Source: an uncultured Victivallales bacterium (GTDB lineage: Bacteria > Verrucomicrobiota > Kiritimatiellia > UBA8416 > CAYSRM01). From it: a DNA stretch of 64,000 nt. Under the pieces are notes generated by a model. It was not told the DNA's origin, ran no database searches, and saw only the letters and a program-made list of their open reading frames with translations. Below are positions 2,337-33,375 of the stretch, piece by piece (position 1 is the stretch's first letter; each line of letters opens with the position of its first letter). The stretch covers positions 9,965 through 73,964 of the forward strand of contig CAYYVQ010000002.1 of the NCBI GenBank assembly GCA_964475205.1, given 5' to 3'. The position numbers and the translations under genes were made by a program.

Positions 2337-2363
2337 GAAAAGACCAATAACCAACAATCCGCC

Positions 2364-3197
2364 TCATGCGCCTATGACCCTTCCCCTTCGAAGGATTTTT
2401 TTCAGAAATTTTCTGCGTGTTACGCCCCACTTCTTCTTGAAAAGCCGGCGCGGGTCTTCCAGTGTTTTGTCGTCAAACCGCGAAGTGGTGCTTCGGGAAA
2501 AATGATAGACGAGGCTTGTGCCCACGCCTATGAAATTCCTGCACCCGTGTTTGTGCATCCTCATTGCAAAATCCGGATCGCTTCCAAAACCGGGAAAATA
2601 GTCCTCGTCCAACCCTCCGACAGCGTCCCAGTCAGCCTTTCTGACAAGTGTAGGCGTCCACGTGCTGACAACATTGTACGGTCTCTTCAGTCCGCCATAC
2701 TCGGATAGCAACCGTTCTTCTTCGAATTCCGATGGAGAGCGCCCATAATCCTGGTATCCAATGTAACATTCGGCGGCTTTCCCCGGCTCAATGGCTGTTC
2801 CCGAAAGCCATATTTTTTCCGCCAGATCCGCATACTGCCATAACGCCGAATCCCACTGTGGCAATGGATACATGTCGTCGTTCATGAAACATATCCAATT
2901 GTTTTGCGCCATTTCAGCCGCACGGTTAACTGCATTGCATACACCCGTGTTCTCTTTGCTGTATGCGTATCGGACATTCCGCTCTTCAGCCCAGCTTATA
3001 CATTTGTCGTTATACTCATTAAAAAAAATGATGATCTCGTGGCGGTTGGCGCTGTTTCGAATGAGGCCCCTGTATGCCAGATCCAGGTAATCCATATTGT
3101 TCCATGTAGGAATCAGCACGGAAAATACCGGTGTTGCACCCGGCCTGCTATTTTGCGCTTTTTCCATCTCTGCCGTGCCTCTAATGTGATCCGTCAT
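2364..3197 (-). CDS. family 2 glycosyltransferase
   Basis: VFSVLIPTWNNMDYLDLAYRGL is the GT2 N-terminal motif and a DxD-like MNDDM follows. Length is 277 aa. Confidence 0.7.
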   Translation of the reverse strand: MTDHIRGTAEMEKAQNSRPGATPVFSVLIPTWNNMDYLDLAYRGLIRNSANRHEIIIFFNEYNDKCISWAEERNVRYAYSKENTGVCNAVNRAAEMAQNNWICFMNDDMYPLPQWDSALWQYADLAEKIWLSGTAIEPGKAAECYIGYQDYGRSPSEFEEERLLSEYGGLKRPYNVVSTWTPTLVRKADWDAVGGLDEDYFPGFGSDPDFAMRMHKHGCRNFIGVGTSLVYHFSRSTTSRFDDKTLEDPRRLFKKKWGVTRRKFLKKILRRGRVIGA

Positions 3198-3414
3198 CTC
3201 TGTGTCTCACGAATTACGATTGAATAAATGAACTATTCAAGAGTCCGTAAAATCGCCGCTCCAGTCAATTATATTCACGCGCCGAGTCTGCCGCAGTTGA
3301 TATCTGCCCGCCCTCCCTCTCGTCGGGAGCAGGCTGGGGCGCAGCAAGAAGAGCCGCGCAACCTGTTTTTTCTCTCTTGCATGAAGCATCAAAACGACTT
3401 ACTTTTGACCCAGA

Positions 3415-4236
3415 ATGAAAGCATTAAACTGCACAATAGCAGCGGCATATTTTCTGTTGGCTCAGCATGCCTTTTTGAGCCCGGCCCTCGCAGAGAGATG
3501 GTACGCATACGAAGAGTGCAAGCATCTGGACAAGCTTTACTTTGACGGCGACAGTTTTCATGTAAGAACAAAAAGCAACCACTATATTTTCAGACTGTAT
3601 TTTGTAGATGCACCTGAACTTGAAAAGACTGTTCCCGAACGGGTAGCCGAACAGGCCGAATACTGGGACATCAGCGAAGAACAGGTTATTGAGCTGGCCA
3701 GGAAGGCCAAGGCTTTCACAAAGAAATTTCTTTCCAAAGGCTTCACCGTTCATTCCAGACGTGAAGACGCCAAGGGGCGAAGCCACAGGCCAAGATTTTT
3801 CGGTTTCGTTGAGGCCGACGGACAATATCTTTCCGAGGAGCTGGTCAAAAACGGCCTGGCCCGCGTCTACGGAGCATGGGCCAAACTGCCCGACGGAACG
3901 CGCGCCAGTAAATTCCGCGCGCGTCTGAAAATTATTGAAAGACAGGCAAAAAGGGAAAAACGCGGCGGATGGGGGATGCCCTCCGTGACGCAAAGTTCCC
4001 ATGCGGCTGCCGGCATATCTAAGACAAACCTTGTGCTAAAATCAGCCCTTGATGTTTACAGCGCCAAGGGCCGGCGTCTATACCTTGGCGCCATACCAAG
4101 GGGACATGAAATAGAGGTGCTTGCCCCTGAAACCCGCCTTTATGTCCGGGTTCGTTTTGTATACAAGGGCAAGACAAACGAAGTTCTATGTTCACGCCGC
4201 GTGCTGAAAACTCATTATCCATATAGAAAGAAATAG
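3415..4236 (+). CDS. secreted thermonuclease (SNase-like) with extra C-terminal domain
   Basis: A signal peptide MKALNCTIAAAYFLLAQHAFLSPALA is followed by SNase-like blocks (YFVDAPE, SRREDAKGR, GLARVYG). About 90 aa lie beyond the nuclease fold. Confidence 0.65.
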   Translation: MKALNCTIAAAYFLLAQHAFLSPALAERWYAYEECKHLDKLYFDGDSFHVRTKSNHYIFRLYFVDAPELEKTVPERVAEQAEYWDISEEQVIELARKAKAFTKKFLSKGFTVHSRREDAKGRSHRPRFFGFVEADGQYLSEELVKNGLARVYGAWAKLPDGTRASKFRARLKIIERQAKREKRGGWGMPSVTQSSHAAAGISKTNLVLKSALDVYSAKGRRLYLGAIPRGHEIEVLAPETRLYVRVRFVYKGKTNEVLCSRRVLKTHYPYRKK

Positions 4237-4269
4237 CCTCCCCTTATCTTTTTTGAATAATATTCGCCA

Positions 4270-4854
4270 ATGATAAAACCTTTCCAGAACCAGTTCGCAA
4301 TAACCCTGCCTGATTGGCTCCAGTCCGATTTGCAGGCCGTGGAATCATACATTCCCGAACGCATTGAGCGAATGCGCTTTGTTATAGGCCTTTCCCGCAA
4401 GAACATGGAATTCAGCTCCGGCGGCCCATTTGCCGCGGCTGTTTTTGACAATACACATAACAGACTGATCAGTGCAGGGGTCAACGTCGTGGAGCCTTCC
4501 GCATGCTCTATAGCGCATGCGGAAGTCATGGCATTAACGCTTGCACAACAACGCGCAGGCACTCACAACCTTCGCAGCGTGGAAGGCATCCGGTTCGAAC
4601 TGGTCACCAGCACAGAGCCTTGCGCCATGTGCTTTGGTGCGGTCCAGTGGTCCGGAGTGCAATCCCTTGTGTGCGGGGCTACTGCCGAAGACGCCAGAAA
4701 CATCGGTTTCGACGAGGGCGCAAGACCCGCTGACTGGGCAGGAGAACTCCAGAACCGCGGCATTGAGGTTGTCATGGGAGTCTGTCGCCCGGAAGCCGCA
4801 GGCGTGTTGGCCGATTATGCTGAAAGGGGCGGGTCCATATACAATCCGGGCTGA
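4270..4854 (+). CDS. CMP/dCMP-type zinc deaminase family protein (nucleoside or tRNA-base deaminase)
   Basis: The zinc-ligand motifs HAEVMAL and PCAMCFGAV are present. Confidence 0.7.
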   Translation: MIKPFQNQFAITLPDWLQSDLQAVESYIPERIERMRFVIGLSRKNMEFSSGGPFAAAVFDNTHNRLISAGVNVVEPSACSIAHAEVMALTLAQQRAGTHNLRSVEGIRFELVTSTEPCAMCFGAVQWSGVQSLVCGATAEDARNIGFDEGARPADWAGELQNRGIEVVMGVCRPEAAGVLADYAERGGSIYNPG

Positions 4855-4882
4855 ATTGCGCCGACATTGTCCAGCCTGCACA

Positions 4883-6877
4883 TCAAACGGTTTCTTTCAG
4901 TTCCTTCAACTCGTCCCTTAGAACGGCGGCTCGTTCATACTCGAGAGCTTTGGCAGCCTCCAGCATTTCTTTCTCAAGATCCTGTATGACTTGATGGACA
5001 TCGTAGTCCTCGCCGGTTTCACGCACAATGTTCTCCTCGACTTTTCGAGCCTTGTCCATAGAAACGCCGGCCCAATCGCGCATTTCTTTACTGATGCCCA
5101 CAGGGGTTATGTTGTGGGCCTTATTGTATTGCTTCTGCCTGCTGCGCCGGTATTCAGTCACATCAATCATCCGCTGCATTGAGTCGGTAATCCTGTCAGC
5201 GTAAAGAATGACTTTGCCGTTAACATGCCTTGCAGCGCGCCCTGCAACCTGTATCAACGAAGTTTCCGAACGAAGAAAGCCTTCTTTGTCGGCGTCAAGT
5301 ATTGCAACCAGCGCCACCTCTGGGAGATCCAGTCCTTCTCTCAACAGGTTGATGCCGACCAGGCAATCGAATTCTTTCCTGCGCAGCCTGCCGAGGATCG
5401 CAACTCTTTCCAACGCGTCTATTTCGGAATGCAGATATTCAACCTTGAGACCAGCTTCTCGAAGATAAGCTGACAGGTCCTCGGCTGTCTTCTTGGTCAA
5501 AGTTGTAACAAGCGCTCTTTCATCCCGCAAGGCGTGGCTGCGCACCTCTTCCATGAGATCATCTATCTGTCCGCTCAAAGGTCTTACTTCAACTGGAGGA
5601 TCGATCAGCCCTGTCGGCCGGATCACCTGTTCAACAGGTTCGGGCGATACCTTCCTTTCAAAAGGACCGGGAGTAGCAGTAGTAAAGACCACTTTTCCTG
5701 TTTTCCCCAGGAATTCATCAAAATTAAGGGGACGGTTATCCATGGCGGATGGAAGCCGGAAGCCATGATCCACAAGCACGCTTTTCCGGGCCTGATCGCC
5801 GTTGTACATGGCCCTGACCTGCGGAAGCGTCACATGAGATTCGTCGATGATGGTCAGGAATTCCGAATTAAAGTAATCCAGCAACGTTGCAGGGGGTTCC
5901 CCTTCCGCCCGACCTGAAAGATGGCGAGAGTAATTTTCTATACCTGAGCAGTAGCCGATCTCCTGGAGCATTTCAACATCATACATGGTCCGCGATTTCA
6001 ACCGCTGAGCCTCAAGCAGTTTGCCTTCTCTTTCCAGCTCACGGAGTCTTACTTCCATCTCTGAGTTTATGCGCTCAACCGCCGGTTTAATCTTCGAATC
6101 CGGCATAACAAAATGCCGCGCCGGTGAAATAAGGGTTTCGTTCAGCCTGGCGACGGTTTTGCCGCTGACTGGATCGAACTGTCTTATTTCTTCCACCTCG
6201 TCCCCGAAAAAGTCTATCCGTATAGACTGTTGAGCATACGAAGGATACACATCTACAGAATCGCCCCTGACGCGGAAAGTCCCGGGTTCATGTTCGTAGT
6301 CGTTACGCGAGTACTGGATCTCGACAAGTTTTTCCAGCATTGAGTCGCGTTCCAGTTCTTCACCTTTTTTCACACGCACCAGCATTTCCTGGTAATCTTC
6401 AGGCGAACCCAGCCCGTAAATGCAGGAAACTGACGCAATGATTATCACATCGTTTCTGCATAAAAGTGAATTTGTTGCCGACAGCCGGAAGCGTTCAATC
6501 TCCTCGTTAATGGACGCGTCCTTTTCAATGAAAGTGTCTGTCTGCGGAATGTAAGCTTCGGGCTGATAATAATCGTAATAACTGATAAAATACTCGACCG
6601 CATTGTCCGGAAAAAAATACCGGAACTCTTCATAAAGCTGGGCCGCCAGCGTCTTGTTGTGGGAAATGATCAATGCGGGTCTGCCATATCCGGCAATCAC
6701 ATTGGCCATGGTAAAAGTCTTGCCCGAACCCGTGACTCCTTCAAGAATCTGGAACCTGCCCCCGCCCTGCAGGCCGGCCAGAAGCCGGGATATCGCCTTC
6801 GGCTGATCCCCCGTTGGCGAAAACGGAGCCTTCACTTCAAAACGGGCCTTCACTTCGATAACATCTTCTCCAGGCAC
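4883..6877 (-). CDS. uvrB: excinuclease ABC subunit B
   Basis: The N-terminal FSPTGDQPKAI, Walker A GVTGSGKTFT, helicase motifs and the C-terminal UvrB/UvrC interaction (UVR) domain YERAAVLRDELKELK are all present. Length is 664 aa. Confidence 0.95.
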   Translation of the reverse strand: MPGEDVIEVKARFEVKAPFSPTGDQPKAISRLLAGLQGGGRFQILEGVTGSGKTFTMANVIAGYGRPALIISHNKTLAAQLYEEFRYFFPDNAVEYFISYYDYYQPEAYIPQTDTFIEKDASINEEIERFRLSATNSLLCRNDVIIIASVSCIYGLGSPEDYQEMLVRVKKGEELERDSMLEKLVEIQYSRNDYEHEPGTFRVRGDSVDVYPSYAQQSIRIDFFGDEVEEIRQFDPVSGKTVARLNETLISPARHFVMPDSKIKPAVERINSEMEVRLRELEREGKLLEAQRLKSRTMYDVEMLQEIGYCSGIENYSRHLSGRAEGEPPATLLDYFNSEFLTIIDESHVTLPQVRAMYNGDQARKSVLVDHGFRLPSAMDNRPLNFDEFLGKTGKVVFTTATPGPFERKVSPEPVEQVIRPTGLIDPPVEVRPLSGQIDDLMEEVRSHALRDERALVTTLTKKTAEDLSAYLREAGLKVEYLHSEIDALERVAILGRLRRKEFDCLVGINLLREGLDLPEVALVAILDADKEGFLRSETSLIQVAGRAARHVNGKVILYADRITDSMQRMIDVTEYRRSRQKQYNKAHNITPVGISKEMRDWAGVSMDKARKVEENIVRETGEDYDVHQVIQDLEKEMLEAAKALEYERAAVLRDELKELKETV

Positions 6878-7872
6878 TTCCTGGCATTATGCGCAATACT
6901 GTCAGGAACACTCACACGGTGGGAATCCGGCCATTTTGTCAGGAGGTCCGCAAGTTTGTCCTCGTCTGTCAACGCCATATCCGTGCAGGTTGAATTTGCC
7001 AGAGGTCTTACATCAACCCGGCCGCCCTGTATCGAGGCCAGTCTTTCCACAAGATGGCGCTCGGTTCCGACAAAAACAGTCGAACCATCGGGAAGAGACT
7101 CAACATACCTGATAATCTGTGCAGTTGACCCAAGCTCATCAGCCTGTGACGCAACGGTGTATGGAACCTCGGGATGAACAATTATACGGGCATCCGCATA
7201 ATTCTCCCGTATAGCCCTTATGTACCTCAGGGTAAATGCGGTATGCACGTGGCAGAAGCCCCGCCAGATTATCATCGAAGCTTTTTCAACAGATTCCTGA
7301 CTAAGACCGCCGCAAGTCTCGGCGGGGTCACAGTATGCGATCCGCTCTCTCTCCAGCCCGAGCTTAACAGCAGTATTGGTTCCAAGATGTTCGTCAGGAA
7401 GAAACAGGACCCGGTTGCCCCTTTTCAGTTCACGGCTGGTTATCTCCAGGGCGTTGCTTGATGTGCACGCGCTGCCGCCCCTGGCCCCGCAAAACGATTT
7501 CACAGGCGCTGAGCTGTTCACATACACAATCGGGGTCCACTGTCCAGCGCTCTCGGTAAGAAACGACCATACTGTTTTCAATTTATCCACATCCGCCATG
7601 TCAGCCATGGGACAGCCCGCATCAGGATCGGGCATATACACAGATTGACTGCTCGTAGTAAGCACATCCGCGGATTCTGCCATAAACCTGACGCCACAGA
7701 ACACAATCCGTTCCGCGTCCCGCTGCTCAGAGGCAATCCTGGCAAGTTCAAGAGAATCCCCTACGCTGTCTGCATGTTTAAGAACAGATGAACGCTCATA
7801 ATGATGCCCCAGGATCAGAAGTTTAGAACCCCATTTCTGTTTCTGTTGCGCTATCGTATTAGTCGTATTCAC
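6850..7872 (-). CDS. nadA: quinolinate synthase A
   Basis: LLILGHHYERSSVLKHADSVGDSLELARIA and the NadA-type Cys-containing blocks are present. Length is 340 aa. Its 3' end overlaps the uvrB start by 28 bp. Confidence 0.85.
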   Translation of the reverse strand: MNTTNTIAQQKQKWGSKLLILGHHYERSSVLKHADSVGDSLELARIASEQRDAERIVFCGVRFMAESADVLTTSSQSVYMPDPDAGCPMADMADVDKLKTVWSFLTESAGQWTPIVYVNSSAPVKSFCGARGGSACTSSNALEITSRELKRGNRVLFLPDEHLGTNTAVKLGLERERIAYCDPAETCGGLSQESVEKASMIIWRGFCHVHTAFTLRYIRAIRENYADARIIVHPEVPYTVASQADELGSTAQIIRYVESLPDGSTVFVGTERHLVERLASIQGGRVDVRPLANSTCTDMALTDEDKLADLLTKWPDSHRVSVPDSIAHNARKCLEKMLSK

Positions 7873-7958: not shown

Positions 7959-8100
7959 CCCGCATTTCTCACGGGATTGACACTCACCCGCATATCTCAC
8001 AAAATTCTTACTGCGAGCGCGGATAGCACCCCCACAGGAGCGCTCTCCACGCTCTTCCGCCAGATGGCGGACAGGCTGCTACGAAATTCCGTGTAATACT
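7959..8100. repeat. degenerate copy of the CCCGCATATCTCA-TIR small repeat family (reverse orientation relative to the 30662-30838 copy)
   Basis: acccgcatttctca lies at 7959-7972 and cccgcatatctcacaaaattcttactgcgagcgcggatagc at 7987 onward matches the reverse complement of 30800-30838. gctacgaaattcc is shared at the far end, and the distal TIR is degraded. Confidence 0.6.
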
Positions 8101-8354
8101 TTCTGAAGCCACAGCTCAGGGGGCCCCTTATTGCTTTTTTCCATTCGGACAGCTAAATTTAATGTCGATGATAACAGACGCGCAATGCCTTCAACCGGAT
8201 TGCTTCAGCACAATAAACATAACTGCTGGAGCGATGCGAAAAAGAACAGGCAAAATCAACAGCAACATGACTTTGCTCGCTTTCAAGTTGAAAGCAATGC
8301 GCTCTTCAGGTTTCTTACAAAAATAGCAACAATAAAGATAAGGAGCACAATACG

Positions 8355-8918
8355 ATGGATATACCCCTTGAAATTTCTTTTCGCGACGTCGAAAGAACCC
8401 CGCAGATTGAACAGTTGATTCACAAAAGGGCGGCCGACCTTGAGCGCAAATGCAAAGCTCTCAAAAGCTGCCGCATAGCGGTTGAACAACCCCAGAAACA
8501 CCAGCGTACGGGAAATCCGTATAGAATAAGGCTGGATATGCATGTTCCGCCTGGCCACGAGCTGGTTGTAAAAAACAAACCCAGGCAGAAGCCGCAACAC
8601 GAAAGTCTTCACGCAGTGATTACCGATACTTTCGATTCAGCCGAACGTGTTCTTAAAAAAACTCTCGACAAGATGAGCGGCGAAACAAAGAGACATCCAG
8701 ACCAGGAAGCAACGGCTTTTGTTGACCGTGTGTTTCGTGACAAAGGTTACGGTTTTATAAGATCAATTGACGGCACGGAGCGTTACTTTCACCAGAACAG
8801 TGTTCTTAACAATGATTTTGAACGTCTCGAGCCCGGAACAGGTGTCACTTTTGTCCCTGAGGAAGGTGAAAAAGGCCCACAGGTCAGCTCAATGAAAATA
8901 GTCAATAAGCCCGGCTAA
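8355..8918 (+). CDS. hpf: ribosome hibernation promoting factor (RaiA/HPF, S30AE family) fused to a C-terminal cold-shock domain
   Basis: The N-terminal ~100 aa, MDIPLEISFRDVERTPQIEQLIHKRAADLERKCKALKSCRIAVEQ...LHAVITDTFDSAERVLKKTLDK, match the HPF/YfiA pattern. The C-terminus, DKGYGFIRSIDGTERYFHQNSV...GTGVTFVPEEGEKGPQVSSMKIV, is a CspA-like S1/OB cold-shock domain. Confidence 0.75.
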   Translation: MDIPLEISFRDVERTPQIEQLIHKRAADLERKCKALKSCRIAVEQPQKHQRTGNPYRIRLDMHVPPGHELVVKNKPRQKPQHESLHAVITDTFDSAERVLKKTLDKMSGETKRHPDQEATAFVDRVFRDKGYGFIRSIDGTERYFHQNSVLNNDFERLEPGTGVTFVPEEGEKGPQVSSMKIVNKPG

Positions 8919-8979: not shown

Positions 8980-9112
8980 AAAGAGCTTCAGACGCCAATG
9001 GCTTGGGGACTGTGAGATATGCGGGTCAGGATGTGCCAATGTTGAACTCAACTCGAACCATGCCTGAAACCCCGAAAATACAGGCCGGAACACACGTTCC
9101 GCTCTTCAAAAG

Positions 9113-30450: not shown

Positions 30451-30661
30451 TCCAGGCTTCCCCTGCCCCGATCCGTTAAAACGTATGAATTTCATCCACC
30501 GCCTCCCTTTGAGAAAACCTTATCGCAATCCCGCAGAAGTGTCACAACAGGCTGCGCGCAAATCATTAATCTGCGTCTAATACATCTATACTTATAACAT
30601 CCCGCAGAATAATAGACAACTAAAAACTGTTCAATCCCCGAACCCTTATCCCGATCTTCAT

Positions 30662-30838
30662 CCCGCATATCTCATGGAATTTCGTAGCGAGAGCGTGGAG
30701 TGTGCTTCTGCGGGGGTGCAAATTGGTAATACTCCGGAGCAGCCGTTGTAGACATACTGCAATCTGAGGTTTTGCCAATTCGTGCCCTCGCAGTGGCGCT
30801 CTCCGCACTCGCAGCAGGAATTTTGTGAGATATGCGGG
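30662..30838. mobile_element. 177-bp MITE-like element with 13-bp perfect terminal inverted repeats (CCCGCATATCTCA family)
   Basis: cccgcatatctca at 30662-30674 is matched by tgagatatgcggg at 30826-30838. Related copies or fragments lie at 7959-8100, 9011-9025 and 33210-33222. Confidence 0.65.
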
Positions 30839-30874
30839 TTAAAAAACGGCGCCATACGCACTCTTTTTTTGCCG

Positions 30875-31068
30875 GCAATTCTCATTATGGCCATTTTGCC
30901 ACGTCTGGCGTGGCCAGAGTTCCGGCACGATATTGCAGCCACGCGCGAGTAGGCCCGGCTTCACCGAAGCCGAGGCCCCAAGAGCGCTGGGCTTCGGTGA
31001 AGCCCGCGCTACTACGCACATCGTTATACAAATAGGTTTTGGCGGAAAGAGGCCATAATGAGAATTGC
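30875..31068. mobile_element. 194-bp MITE-like element, copy A, 18-bp perfect terminal inverted repeats (GCAATTCTCATTATGGCC), internal palindrome
   Basis: The TIRs are gcaattctcattatggcc and ggccataatgagaattgc. The internal hairpin is cttcaccgaagccgaggccccaagagcgctgggcttcggtgaag. It is near-identical to 48207-48400. Confidence 0.8.
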
Positions 31069-31091
31069 TGTTTTTTGCATTTAAGCGTTGA

Positions 31092-31125
31092 CGGCACGAC
31101 GCAAATACGCTAATTTAACTTATAG
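31092..31125 (+). promoter_or_regulatory. putative sigma70-type promoter for the 648-aa secreted protein gene
   Basis: TTGACG, a 17-bp spacer and TAATTT are present, with RBS aaggaaaggaaaacag before the ATG at 31181. Confidence 0.35.
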
Positions 31126-31180
31126 AGTATAGAGCTAAGGAGTTATTTAGCAGTTTCCTATAACAAGGAAAGGAAAACAG

Positions 31181-33127
31181 ATGAAAACAATAAAACAAAG
31201 TGTGGCGCGAAAAAGTGTATTGTCAATTGCGGTTCTGGTAAGCGTGGCGATAACATCATACGCAAATACGACAAACCAGATTCCATACGTAAACGATTTT
31301 GAAAACATACCGTCGGGAACGCCCCTGGTGGGCTCCAGTGGCTGGTATGGAGCTTCCAACAGTTATGCGATTGTGACCAACAGAGATTACAGCGCTTTCT
31401 ACTCCAACTATCCGCTGCCGACAAGTACCCACTCAAATGTTATGCTGCTGCAGACCGAAGGCACAGTGGTTACCAACGAACTTGAAGACCTGACCGATGA
31501 TGAAACCAGGAGCAATGTAACCAACGTATGGTTTGACAGCGTGATCCGGTTTACCCACTGGTCCGAAGACTCTTATCCTGATGCTATAACCAGCAATGAC
31601 CAGGTTCAATGCGCGTTCTTCGCAAACACCAATGATCACCTTGTAGTGCATCATTATGACTTACTCGGAGAGTCAAACGCTTTCACCGTGATCACCAACA
31701 GCTCCATCACCAACGGTCAGTACACTCGTATAACAATCAAGTTGGACTACCTCTCAGACGAGGCATTCGGGACCATCGATCACACTTATTATCAGCTCTA
31801 CATTGACGGCAATTTGATGACCAATTCCGCTGCGTACCAGTCGCCCAGTGACACCAGCGGAAAACCGGGGACATGGTTTATGACCGCTAATGATGCGGTT
31901 GCAAAAAAATATTTGACAGGGCTGGAACTCTCCGGGAACGGAGTTTTTGACGATATGATCGTATCGACTAATGACACTATGGGCCCCACGCCTGACAGTT
32001 ACACGATCTTTACGGAAGTCAACGATCCGGCGCGAGGCGACATAAGCCCGGACAGCGACACGGTATTTGAAGGCAACGATAGCGATGACTTTGCCATTAC
32101 GGCAAGCAACGGCTATTACGTAGCCCAGCTTCTGACTAATTCCGTGCAGGTCTTCACTAACAGCGACGTGACCGTCACATCAACAAACTACACCTGGCCG
32201 AGCGTCATGGCCGACGGAACGATAACTGTGAACTTCGCAACATCTCCCACATACCTGGTGACCGGAGTAGTGGCAACGGGTCAGGGCACGATTGATCCGG
32301 CAACCACAAATGTGGTGGCTAACAATGATGCTTCCTTCCAGGTAGACGCAGACACAGGCTGGTACATACAATCCATAACAACGAACGAAACGGCGATACC
32401 CGGCAGCCCGTTCGATGTCAGTCTTACATCAACAAACTATACATGGCAGAACGTTGCGGCCGACGGAACAGTAACTGTGCATTTCGCGGAATGGCACCTT
32501 ATAACCGGCGTGGTCGCGACGGCAGGCGGATCAGTGAACCCGGCAAGTAGAATCGTGGCAGATGGACAGAATGCCTCGTTCGACCTTGTTGCAGACCCTC
32601 ATTACCATGTCGGCCTGCTTGAAACCAACGGCACTGCTACCGGCGGACCATGGGACAACAGCTCCACAAACGAAAATTACGTATGGACCTCCGTTGTAGC
32701 AGACGGGACGTTGACCGTTGCATTTACGGAGAATGTCTGGACCAACGGCACACCGGAAACATGGCTGGCAGACTATTACGGTTCCACAAATTATGAGCAG
32801 GCTGCATCGAGTGATACCGACGGAGACGGGCAGGAAGCATGGGCCGAGCACCTTGCTGGAACAGATCCGACCGACAGCAATTCGGTATTCCGGATAGATG
32901 ATACCTGGCATGAAAACGGGACAAACTACCTTAGGTGGGTCAGTCATCATGTCGGAGATCAGACATCACTGCCGCCGTATAACATCGTATACGCCACCAA
33001 TCTGCTCAACGCGGACTGGAACGTGGTAACAGATACGGTGGAAAGAACAGACGGGACACACACAAATGTCTGGTCCTGGGAAAGCGCAGAAGGAGCTTTC
33101 TACCGGATTGTAGTAACCAACCAGTAA
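31181..33127 (+). CDS. secreted protein with three internal ~80-aa repeats and a conserved C-terminal D-x-D-G-D-G / GTDP module
   Basis: The signal peptide is MKTIKQSVARKSVLSIAVLVSVAITSYA. The repeats are TNYTWPSVMADGTITVNFA..., TNYTWQNVAADGTVTVHFA... and ENYVWTSVVADGTLTVAFT.... The C-terminus is TPETWLADYYGSTNY...DTDGDGQEAWAEHLAGTDPTDSNSVF. Confidence 0.7.
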   Translation: MKTIKQSVARKSVLSIAVLVSVAITSYANTTNQIPYVNDFENIPSGTPLVGSSGWYGASNSYAIVTNRDYSAFYSNYPLPTSTHSNVMLLQTEGTVVTNELEDLTDDETRSNVTNVWFDSVIRFTHWSEDSYPDAITSNDQVQCAFFANTNDHLVVHHYDLLGESNAFTVITNSSITNGQYTRITIKLDYLSDEAFGTIDHTYYQLYIDGNLMTNSAAYQSPSDTSGKPGTWFMTANDAVAKKYLTGLELSGNGVFDDMIVSTNDTMGPTPDSYTIFTEVNDPARGDISPDSDTVFEGNDSDDFAITASNGYYVAQLLTNSVQVFTNSDVTVTSTNYTWPSVMADGTITVNFATSPTYLVTGVVATGQGTIDPATTNVVANNDASFQVDADTGWYIQSITTNETAIPGSPFDVSLTSTNYTWQNVAADGTVTVHFAEWHLITGVVATAGGSVNPASRIVADGQNASFDLVADPHYHVGLLETNGTATGGPWDNSSTNENYVWTSVVADGTLTVAFTENVWTNGTPETWLADYYGSTNYEQAASSDTDGDGQEAWAEHLAGTDPTDSNSVFRIDDTWHENGTNYLRWVSHHVGDQTSLPPYNIVYATNLLNADWNVVTDTVERTDGTHTNVWSWESAEGAFYRIVVTNQ

Positions 33128-33179: not shown

Positions 33180-33375
33180 TGGCAAATTTCATGGATACCC
33201 CTTAAACTGACCCGCATTTCTCACTTTCAGTTCCTGCAACACGGAAATAACTCTGGCTTTTCGGTGGTTAATACCTTATTATAATAACCAGAAAGGAACG
33301 GCAGCATCGGGCAGTAAAATCGCTGTGCAGGGCACGGTTAAAACAGGAACGAAAATTGCTGTGTTATAAAGTCAA

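Follow-up and report, generated by a model that had tools for sequence, protein, structure and literature searches.

A 177-bp repeat unit on a Victivallales chromosome is probably a copy of a non-coding MITE family shared with Opitutales

The defining properties of MITEs have been reviewed (PMC10969869) and match those seen here. Among the closest described systems, Correia elements are small and non-coding, carry terminal inverted repeats (TIRs) and are present in many intergenic copies with internally deleted size classes; they give rise to hairpin transcripts and have no known transposase partner (PMC10969869). Repeats of the ERIC/IRU type are imperfect palindromes of 100-200 nt, which are located in intergenic regions, often 3'-proximal, and show strand-dependent RNA folding (PMC10969869). 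With regard to target sites and enzymes, the motif duplicated by IS5 is YTAR (PMC10359306), and IS1380 transposases have been used as the prokaryotic outgroup of piggyBac (PMC10813416).

The unit described here is located in a window of 64,000 nucleotides, the whole stretch of DNA that was analysed, from an uncultured Victivallales bacterium. It is very probably a copy of a family of non-coding MITEs of about 175 nt, which encodes no enzyme and occurs in Victivallales and Opitutales, and the stray 13-mers in the window are probably relics of this family. With a length of 177 bp, the unit lies below the limit of about 500 bp for MITEs, and the reading frames crossing it are short and unconserved. 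Its TIRs are perfect over 13 bp in the window, and termini of 14-15 nt are conserved across the families. A mobile MITE family with solo relics had been suggested by the initial annotation, and this suggestion is supported by the many copies of conserved length, a 4-bp duplication, the intergenic location and insertions that differ between relatives. The family is apparently undescribed; a literature search found the exact sequence of the element in no paper and no reports of MITEs in these orders.

The features of the family in the window are collected in Table 1. The annotated unit and its perfect TIRs were confirmed. The exact 13-mer is present at four window sites, 7987(+), 9013-9025(-), 30662(+) and 30826-30838(-), and copies with one mismatch are found at 7959-7971 and 33211-33223. 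According to the gene map, these six good sites are all intergenic, with non-coding DNA accounting for about 12% of the window as the sum of the gaps. The claim of an exact 13-mer at six or more sites therefore stands for the six intergenic sites, but only four of them are exact. Likewise, the solo site placed at 33210-33222 upstream of the giant gene is present but was off by one, and the TIR-like site at 9011-9025 beside the tRNA genes contains the exact 13-mer. With up to two mismatches allowed, the window has nine matches compared with 1.70 expected, a number reached in none of 100 shuffles, and the 13-mer is thus well above chance in the window.

Table 1. Copies, ends and solo ends of the MITE family in the window
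Feature	Position	Strand	Remarks
Full-length MITE copy, Victivallales type, 177 bp	30662..30838	+	Better-folding strand is +
Left terminal inverted repeat CCCGCATATCTCA	30662..30674	+
Right terminal inverted repeat, TGAGATATGCGGG on the + strand	30826..30838	-	Exact reverse complement of CCCGCATATCTCA
Truncated copy of the 197-nt variant	~7987..8103	-	From BLAST segments and alignment with the 197-nt copies L012 and L080
Solo end CCCGCATTTCTCA, one mismatch	7959..7971	+	Lies outside the truncated copy, 15 nt from its intact end
Solo end, TGTGAGATATGCGGG on the + strand	9011..9025	-	Between the hpf 3' end and tRNA-Met; flank TCAG
Solo end CCCGCATTTCTCA	33211..33223	+	Flank CTGA

The truncated copy is flanked by the genes for NadA and an HPF-like protein. 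A reverse-oriented homologue of the unit had been noted in this intergenic region, and it was recovered as two matching segments, one of 38 nt (92%) and one of 30 nt (87%). The copy retains an intact TIR (7987-7999) and a 22-nt insert specific to the variant (AGCCTGTCCGCCATCTGGCGGA). Alignment with its longer relatives shows that about 75 apical nt are missing and that the far end is degraded, in agreement with the degraded end described before. Its predicted fold reaches -52.2 kcal/mol on the - strand compared with -36.1 on the + strand. A sigma-70-like site (TTGACA-17-CAAAAT, 10/12) at 7977-8005 reads towards hpf, with its first hexamer in flanking DNA and its second inside the end of the truncated copy. 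This hybrid site carries little weight as a promoter, since sites of its kind are about as numerous in the region as expected by chance. The HPF-like protein itself (8355-8918) combines its Ribosomal_S30AE domain with a cold-shock domain at the C-terminus (CSD, E 2.3e-9), an arrangement that looks like an unusual fusion.

All three solo ends in the window are flanked by CTGA/TCAG and not by YTAR, and direct reading shows inverted repeats of only 5-6 bp around two of them. These flanks may be due to chance. The solo ends in other genomes mostly have a YTAR-like flank and often lie beside truncated element halves. One window solo end precedes the giant gene by 165 nt, and another precedes nadA by 87 nt. 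The former lies between the terminator-like hairpin of the gene at 31181-33127 and the start of the gene for a 2756-aa protein, and it is identical in the Logan contig L001. The tRNA genes encode tRNA-Met and tRNA-Arg, and the other neighbours are a DUF1559 prepilin-like protein, a 648-aa protein without a Pfam match and the 2756-aa protein. The rest of the window is core chromosome, with UvrB, ClpX, trigger factor, Rho, SecY and RpoA among its genes.

Two further repeats were observed close to the unit. A second, different MITE-like unit with the inverted ends GGCAATTCTCATTATGGCC is located at 30874-31070, 36 bp from the 177-bp unit. The only public contig of the window's organism, Logan L001, begins inside this second unit, at window position 31042, which suggests that it, too, is an assembly-breaking repeat. 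In addition, TCCCGCAGAA is found twice on the + strand, at 30529-30538 and 30600-30609, 71 nt apart, with both copies in the intergenic DNA that separates the prepilin-like gene from the MITE.

To find relatives, the 21-mer GAATTTTGTGAGAWATGCGGG, which is common to both window copies, was searched in one genome per GTDB species. More than 103 stretches were matched, in at least 10 species-level MAGs. The hosts among the matches listed are three MAGs of Victivallales/Victivallaceae, seven of Opitutales/Opitutia and one Desulfobulbia contig, the last with a solo end only. At least 20 tiles with matches came from one Opitutales MAG alone. Many matches lie 30-50 nt from contig ends, as expected because repeats break short-read assemblies. 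Plasmids were searched for both families and viral contigs were searched as well, with no match in either. Matches in JGI metagenome contigs were limited to three stretches (L106, L107 and L108). One of these, L106 at 1851-1871, has the 21-mer within the reading frame of a coding region on an AT-rich contig (30% GC), where it is translated as CEFCEICG, and is probably a chance match.

Complete elements, defined by both ends within two mismatches and taken from the matches listed, have modal lengths of 173 nt (24 elements), 197 nt (12) and 176 nt (11); internally deleted derivatives of 50-153 nt are also present. Full copies of conserved length with TIRs thus recur in related genomes. Copies of the Victivallales type are found in the Victivallales/Victivallaceae MAGs and measure 176 and 197 nt, with additional 71-nt deletion derivatives. 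The Opitutales type, from the Opitutales/Opitutia MAGs, measures 173 nt and has longer variants with nested inserts. Same-length copies within one MAG are approximately 89-93% identical, and the 176-nt copies in Victivallales MAGs align end to end with the window unit at 87-92% identity. In homologous orientation, about 45 nt at one end are common to both types (Victivallales CCCGCATATCTCACAGAATTTCGTAGCGAGAGCGTGGAGA, Opitutales CCCGCATATCTCACAAAATTCGTAGCGAGCGAACGGAGA) and about 30 nt at the other end, with unrelated interiors.

A third family with an unrelated palindromic interior of its own and a length of 154 nt was found in two JGI metagenome contigs (Ga0209536, WOR8) as identical elements (L107 ~612-765 and L108 ~6816-6969). 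Three families with unrelated interiors therefore have the same termini. The combination of the same termini with different interiors in two PVC phyla points to a transposase that would be shared or have moved horizontally. The window itself is syntenic with locus L074 at 85-90% identity and with L101 at 76.5%, which places it in Victivallales. Two other kinds of repeats were seen around the relatives. Tandem heptamer runs of the AATTAGG or GATTACG types lie beside several MITE copies in Opitutales and Victivallales MAGs (L056, in the gap beside the copy ending at 3350; L095 5228-5245; L009; L017; L074 3410-3500). One Victivallales MAG has a one-ended unit of about 75 nt, in which the same 14-nt end is followed by ACTTCTCCGGCAGAAACCATTCATAGCGCCATTATCGCAAGCC without a second end (L097 ~2780-2856, L062 ~550-625 and L097 1-72).

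The flanks of the elements show how they were inserted. Identical 4-bp direct flanks are present in 57 of 84 complete elements among the matches listed, and intact duplications are found in 41 of 53 copies of the Opitutales type and 16 of 31 of the Victivallales type. The most frequent sequences are TTAA (18), TTAG (16), CTAG (10) and CTAA (7), with TGAA, TCAA and CCAG being rarer, and both flanks read Y-T-A-R. These flanks are a true target-site duplication at YTAR, a feature characteristic of IS5-type DDE transposition. That they are a mere extension of the inverted repeat is excluded, as the non-palindromic flanks are direct (TTAG/TTAG in 16 and CTAA/CTAA in 7 elements), with only one inverted case. 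A TA duplication combined with an inverted repeat longer by one base was rejected for the same kind of reason, since flank positions 1 and 4 co-vary in the direct and not in the inverted sense. The window unit has differing flanks, TCAT vs TTAA, which is consistent with a decayed target-site duplication of its own. Such decay of duplications has been reported for older MITEs (PMC10969869).

Most elements lie outside genes, as 62 of 78 have no overlap with an ORF of at least 120 aa. By our own count, about 19 of the 78 abut the stop codon of such an ORF, and convergent gene pairs (22) outnumber divergent ones (10) around the elements. As YTAR includes TAA or TAG, the position of many copies coincides exactly with the stop codon that ends a gene. 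At L004 (2450-2452) and some 18 further loci, the YTAR duplication includes the stop codon (TAA/TAG) of the neighbouring gene, whose coding sequence is thus directly followed by the element without loss of the stop. Insertions also differ between related loci. L074 carries a copy in an intergenic gap that holds none in the window, which is 85-90% identical over 2346-5503, and the syntenic loci L056 and L085 have copies in different intergenic gaps. A precise empty-site allele was recovered neither from L074 and the window nor from L056 and L085, as the compared intergenic DNA is too diverged.

Every element is predicted to fold into a near-perfect long hairpin with the better fold on one strand. 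The window unit folds end to end, with -106.2 kcal/mol (z -13) on the + strand and -76.0 on the - strand, and the sRNA-like fold proposed in the initial annotation is accordingly real as a structure. The same strand folds better in 28 of 28 copies of the Victivallales type and, in homologous orientation, in 40 of 40 of the Opitutales type. For the Victivallales-type consensus, the values are -127.6 kcal/mol on the better and -96.2 on the other strand, with 10 vs 2 G-U pairs; for the Opitutales-type consensus, they are -96.2 and -76.9 kcal/mol, with 10 vs 5 G-U pairs. The third family leans the same way, weakly (-75.2 vs -68.1). In the Opitutales-type alignment, compensatory changes are found at six pairs (e.g. 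GC 9/AU 6, CG 7/UA 6 and CG 13/GC 8). Double changes affect 32 cells of this alignment (15 +/- 4 in shuffles), and the proportion of paired cells is 96.6%, compared with 31-48% with slid partners, both values being inflated by the kinship of the copies. Counted by pair, double changes do not exceed the shuffled level (6 vs 5.1).

The strand asymmetry raises the question of whether mobility is the primary property of the element or whether it could be primarily a structured RNA, either a long-hairpin sRNA or a hairpin embedded in mRNAs, under selection on one strand and with mobility as a secondary trait. The constancy of the better strand and its G-U pairs, the homology of the favoured strand in both main families and weakly in the third, and the surplus of compensatory cells together with the high degree of pairing would agree with such an RNA, as would the processing of Correia and ERIC hairpins by RNase III and RNase E (PMC10969869). 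However, the compensatory changes keep pairing on both strands and therefore do not distinguish RNA from DNA, and when counted by pairs they do not exceed the shuffles. In our own tally, low-frequency substitutions are also close to the neutral 1:1, producing G-U at some 15 sites and A-C at some 10. Furthermore, 11 elements in co-directional gene pairs are in sense and 15 in antisense orientation, and preferential transcription of the better-folding strand was rejected for this lack of orientation bias. The window unit has neither a promoter-like nor a terminator-like site on its flanks. The Rfam scan of the window at gathering thresholds returned only the two tRNAs, and a permissive scan of 30500-31150 (E up to 1) gave nothing credible over the unit, the best match being mir-266 with an E-value of 0.94 and 18.5 bits vs a threshold of 80 bits. 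An element that is RNA in the first place is thus distinctly improbable. In our reading, complementarity is kept in the propagating master copies and single insertions then drift. A broader idea is that the hairpin is a selected, strand-specific structure across three families and two phyla, serving either the delivery of RNA hairpins or a transposition like that of piggyBac/IS1380, which we consider unlikely. If it were true, the first branch would imply a functional RNA hairpin placed at stop codons as a nuclease target or expression modulator, and the second an undescribed prokaryotic piggyBac/IS1380-like enzyme whose substrate must have CCC ends and a hairpin-forming body, with TTAA/YTAR as the target.

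Two other explanations concern the termini rather than the transcript. The 13-mer could chiefly be the site of a host DNA-binding protein, with two sites carried by the unit and the solo sites acting as functional operators. The intergenic position of all six window sites, the distances of the solo ends to the giant gene and nadA, the invariance of the 13-mer between phyla and the extended flank shared by the solo sites, CTGA-CCCGCAT(A/T)TCTCAC, are in line with this. A static operator, however, is not expected to show a 4-bp direct duplication or variation in insertion sites, and the YTAR flanks and truncated element bodies beside the solo ends elsewhere also argue against it. Moreover, the flanking genes are functionally unrelated, the 13-mer is no palindrome, and the analysis turned up no candidate regulator. 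Of all these points, only the CTGA/TCAG flanks of the window solo ends keep a protein-binding site alive, at a low probability, and we regard it as very improbable. It is still harder to credit that the element is a REP/BIME-like or IS200/IS605-type palindrome that a Y1 (HUH) transposase or RAYT moves in single-stranded form. A hairpin spanning the whole element and the tolerance of G-T on one strand would suit single-stranded DNA recognition. However, IS200/IS605 and REP/RAYT elements are not known to make target duplications or to have TIRs, and their target is conserved on one flank only. The elements found here have the same 4 bp directly repeated on both flanks, and their termini are true inverted repeats.

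A transposase partner of this MITE family was sought in several ways. Pfam searches of 20 proteins revealed no transposase in the window, and tblastn with E. coli IS5 InsH against the window and about 0.7 Mb of loci detected no InsH-like ORF. An all-against-all BLASTP across the loci gave no multi-copy ORFs. No partner was found among the ORFs beside atypical ends, neither at L097, L062, L089, L104, L071, L007, L004, L020, L059 and L054 nor at L043, L046, L055, L068 and L078, and none was present on the three metagenome contigs. TIR pairs 0.6-3.5 kb apart with equal flanks were also searched in about 0.7 Mb of loci, and none of them encloses a transposase. The distant TIR pairs at L035 and L095 were dismissed as coincidences, one of which encloses a 386-aa ORF that is not a transposase.

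Under the proposed mechanism, a DDE transposase encoded elsewhere would recognise the termini, CCCGCAT[A/T]TCTCACA with about 10-30 subterminal nt, and move the element. Insertion would take place at YTAR tetranucleotides, where a 4-bp staggered cut would duplicate the target. Inserted copies would then decay neutrally, and the solo ends at 7959, 9011 and 33211, like the truncated copy at 7987-8103, would be products of this decay. The element folds into a long hairpin over its full length, and its complementarity probably matters for the propagation of master copies because it is kept between subfamilies. Based on the YTAR duplication, the mobilising enzyme most likely belongs to the IS5 group.

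For genome annotation, these results provide a simple rule, YTAR + CCCGCAT[A/T]TCTCACA ... TGTGAGA[A/T]ATGCGGG + YTAR, with a total of about 173-197 nt. The rule names a repeat that fragments the MAG assemblies of Victivallales and Opitutales. It also explains intergenic 13-mers, so that there is no need to interpret these as regulatory motifs or small RNAs. The elements may affect neighbouring genes, and by its tendency to insert at stop codons the family could modify transcript 3' ends. The current understanding of MITEs is unchanged by this family, which is an element of an ordinary kind.

Compared with the known systems, the family resembles the ERIC/IRU-type repeats in being palindromic, 100-200 nt long, intergenic and often 3'-proximal, and in its strand-dependent fold, but these repeats have no sequence similarity to it. 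ERIC is not known to make clear target duplications, and its known hosts are limited to enterobacteria and vibrios. The likeness to the Correia elements of Neisseria (CREE/NEMIS) covers the length of about 100-200 bp, the TIRs, the intergenic copies, the deleted size classes, the hairpin and the fact that no partner was found. Correia elements, however, have a TA duplication and 26-bp repeats, whereas the family described here has a 4-bp YTAR duplication and exact repeats of 13-15 bp, is hosted by PVC bacteria and is unrelated in sequence. The 4-bp YTAR duplication is shared with the MITEs of the IS5 group. In contrast, the ends of E. coli IS5 (GGAAGGTGCGAA...), the one reference IS compared, are unrelated to the termini of the family, and the ends of IS5-group elements begin with GG or GA in the ISfinder tables, whereas those found here begin with CCC. 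IS1380 and piggyBac elements have CC(C) ends, short repeats (13 bp in piggyBac) and a 4-bp duplication, with TTAA as the piggyBac target. CCC ends, short repeats and a 4-bp duplication are also found here, and TTAA is the most common duplication (18 of 57), but the target is YTAR and not strictly TTAA. Set beside the known features of these elements, the resemblance to IS1380 and piggyBac may serve as a lead.
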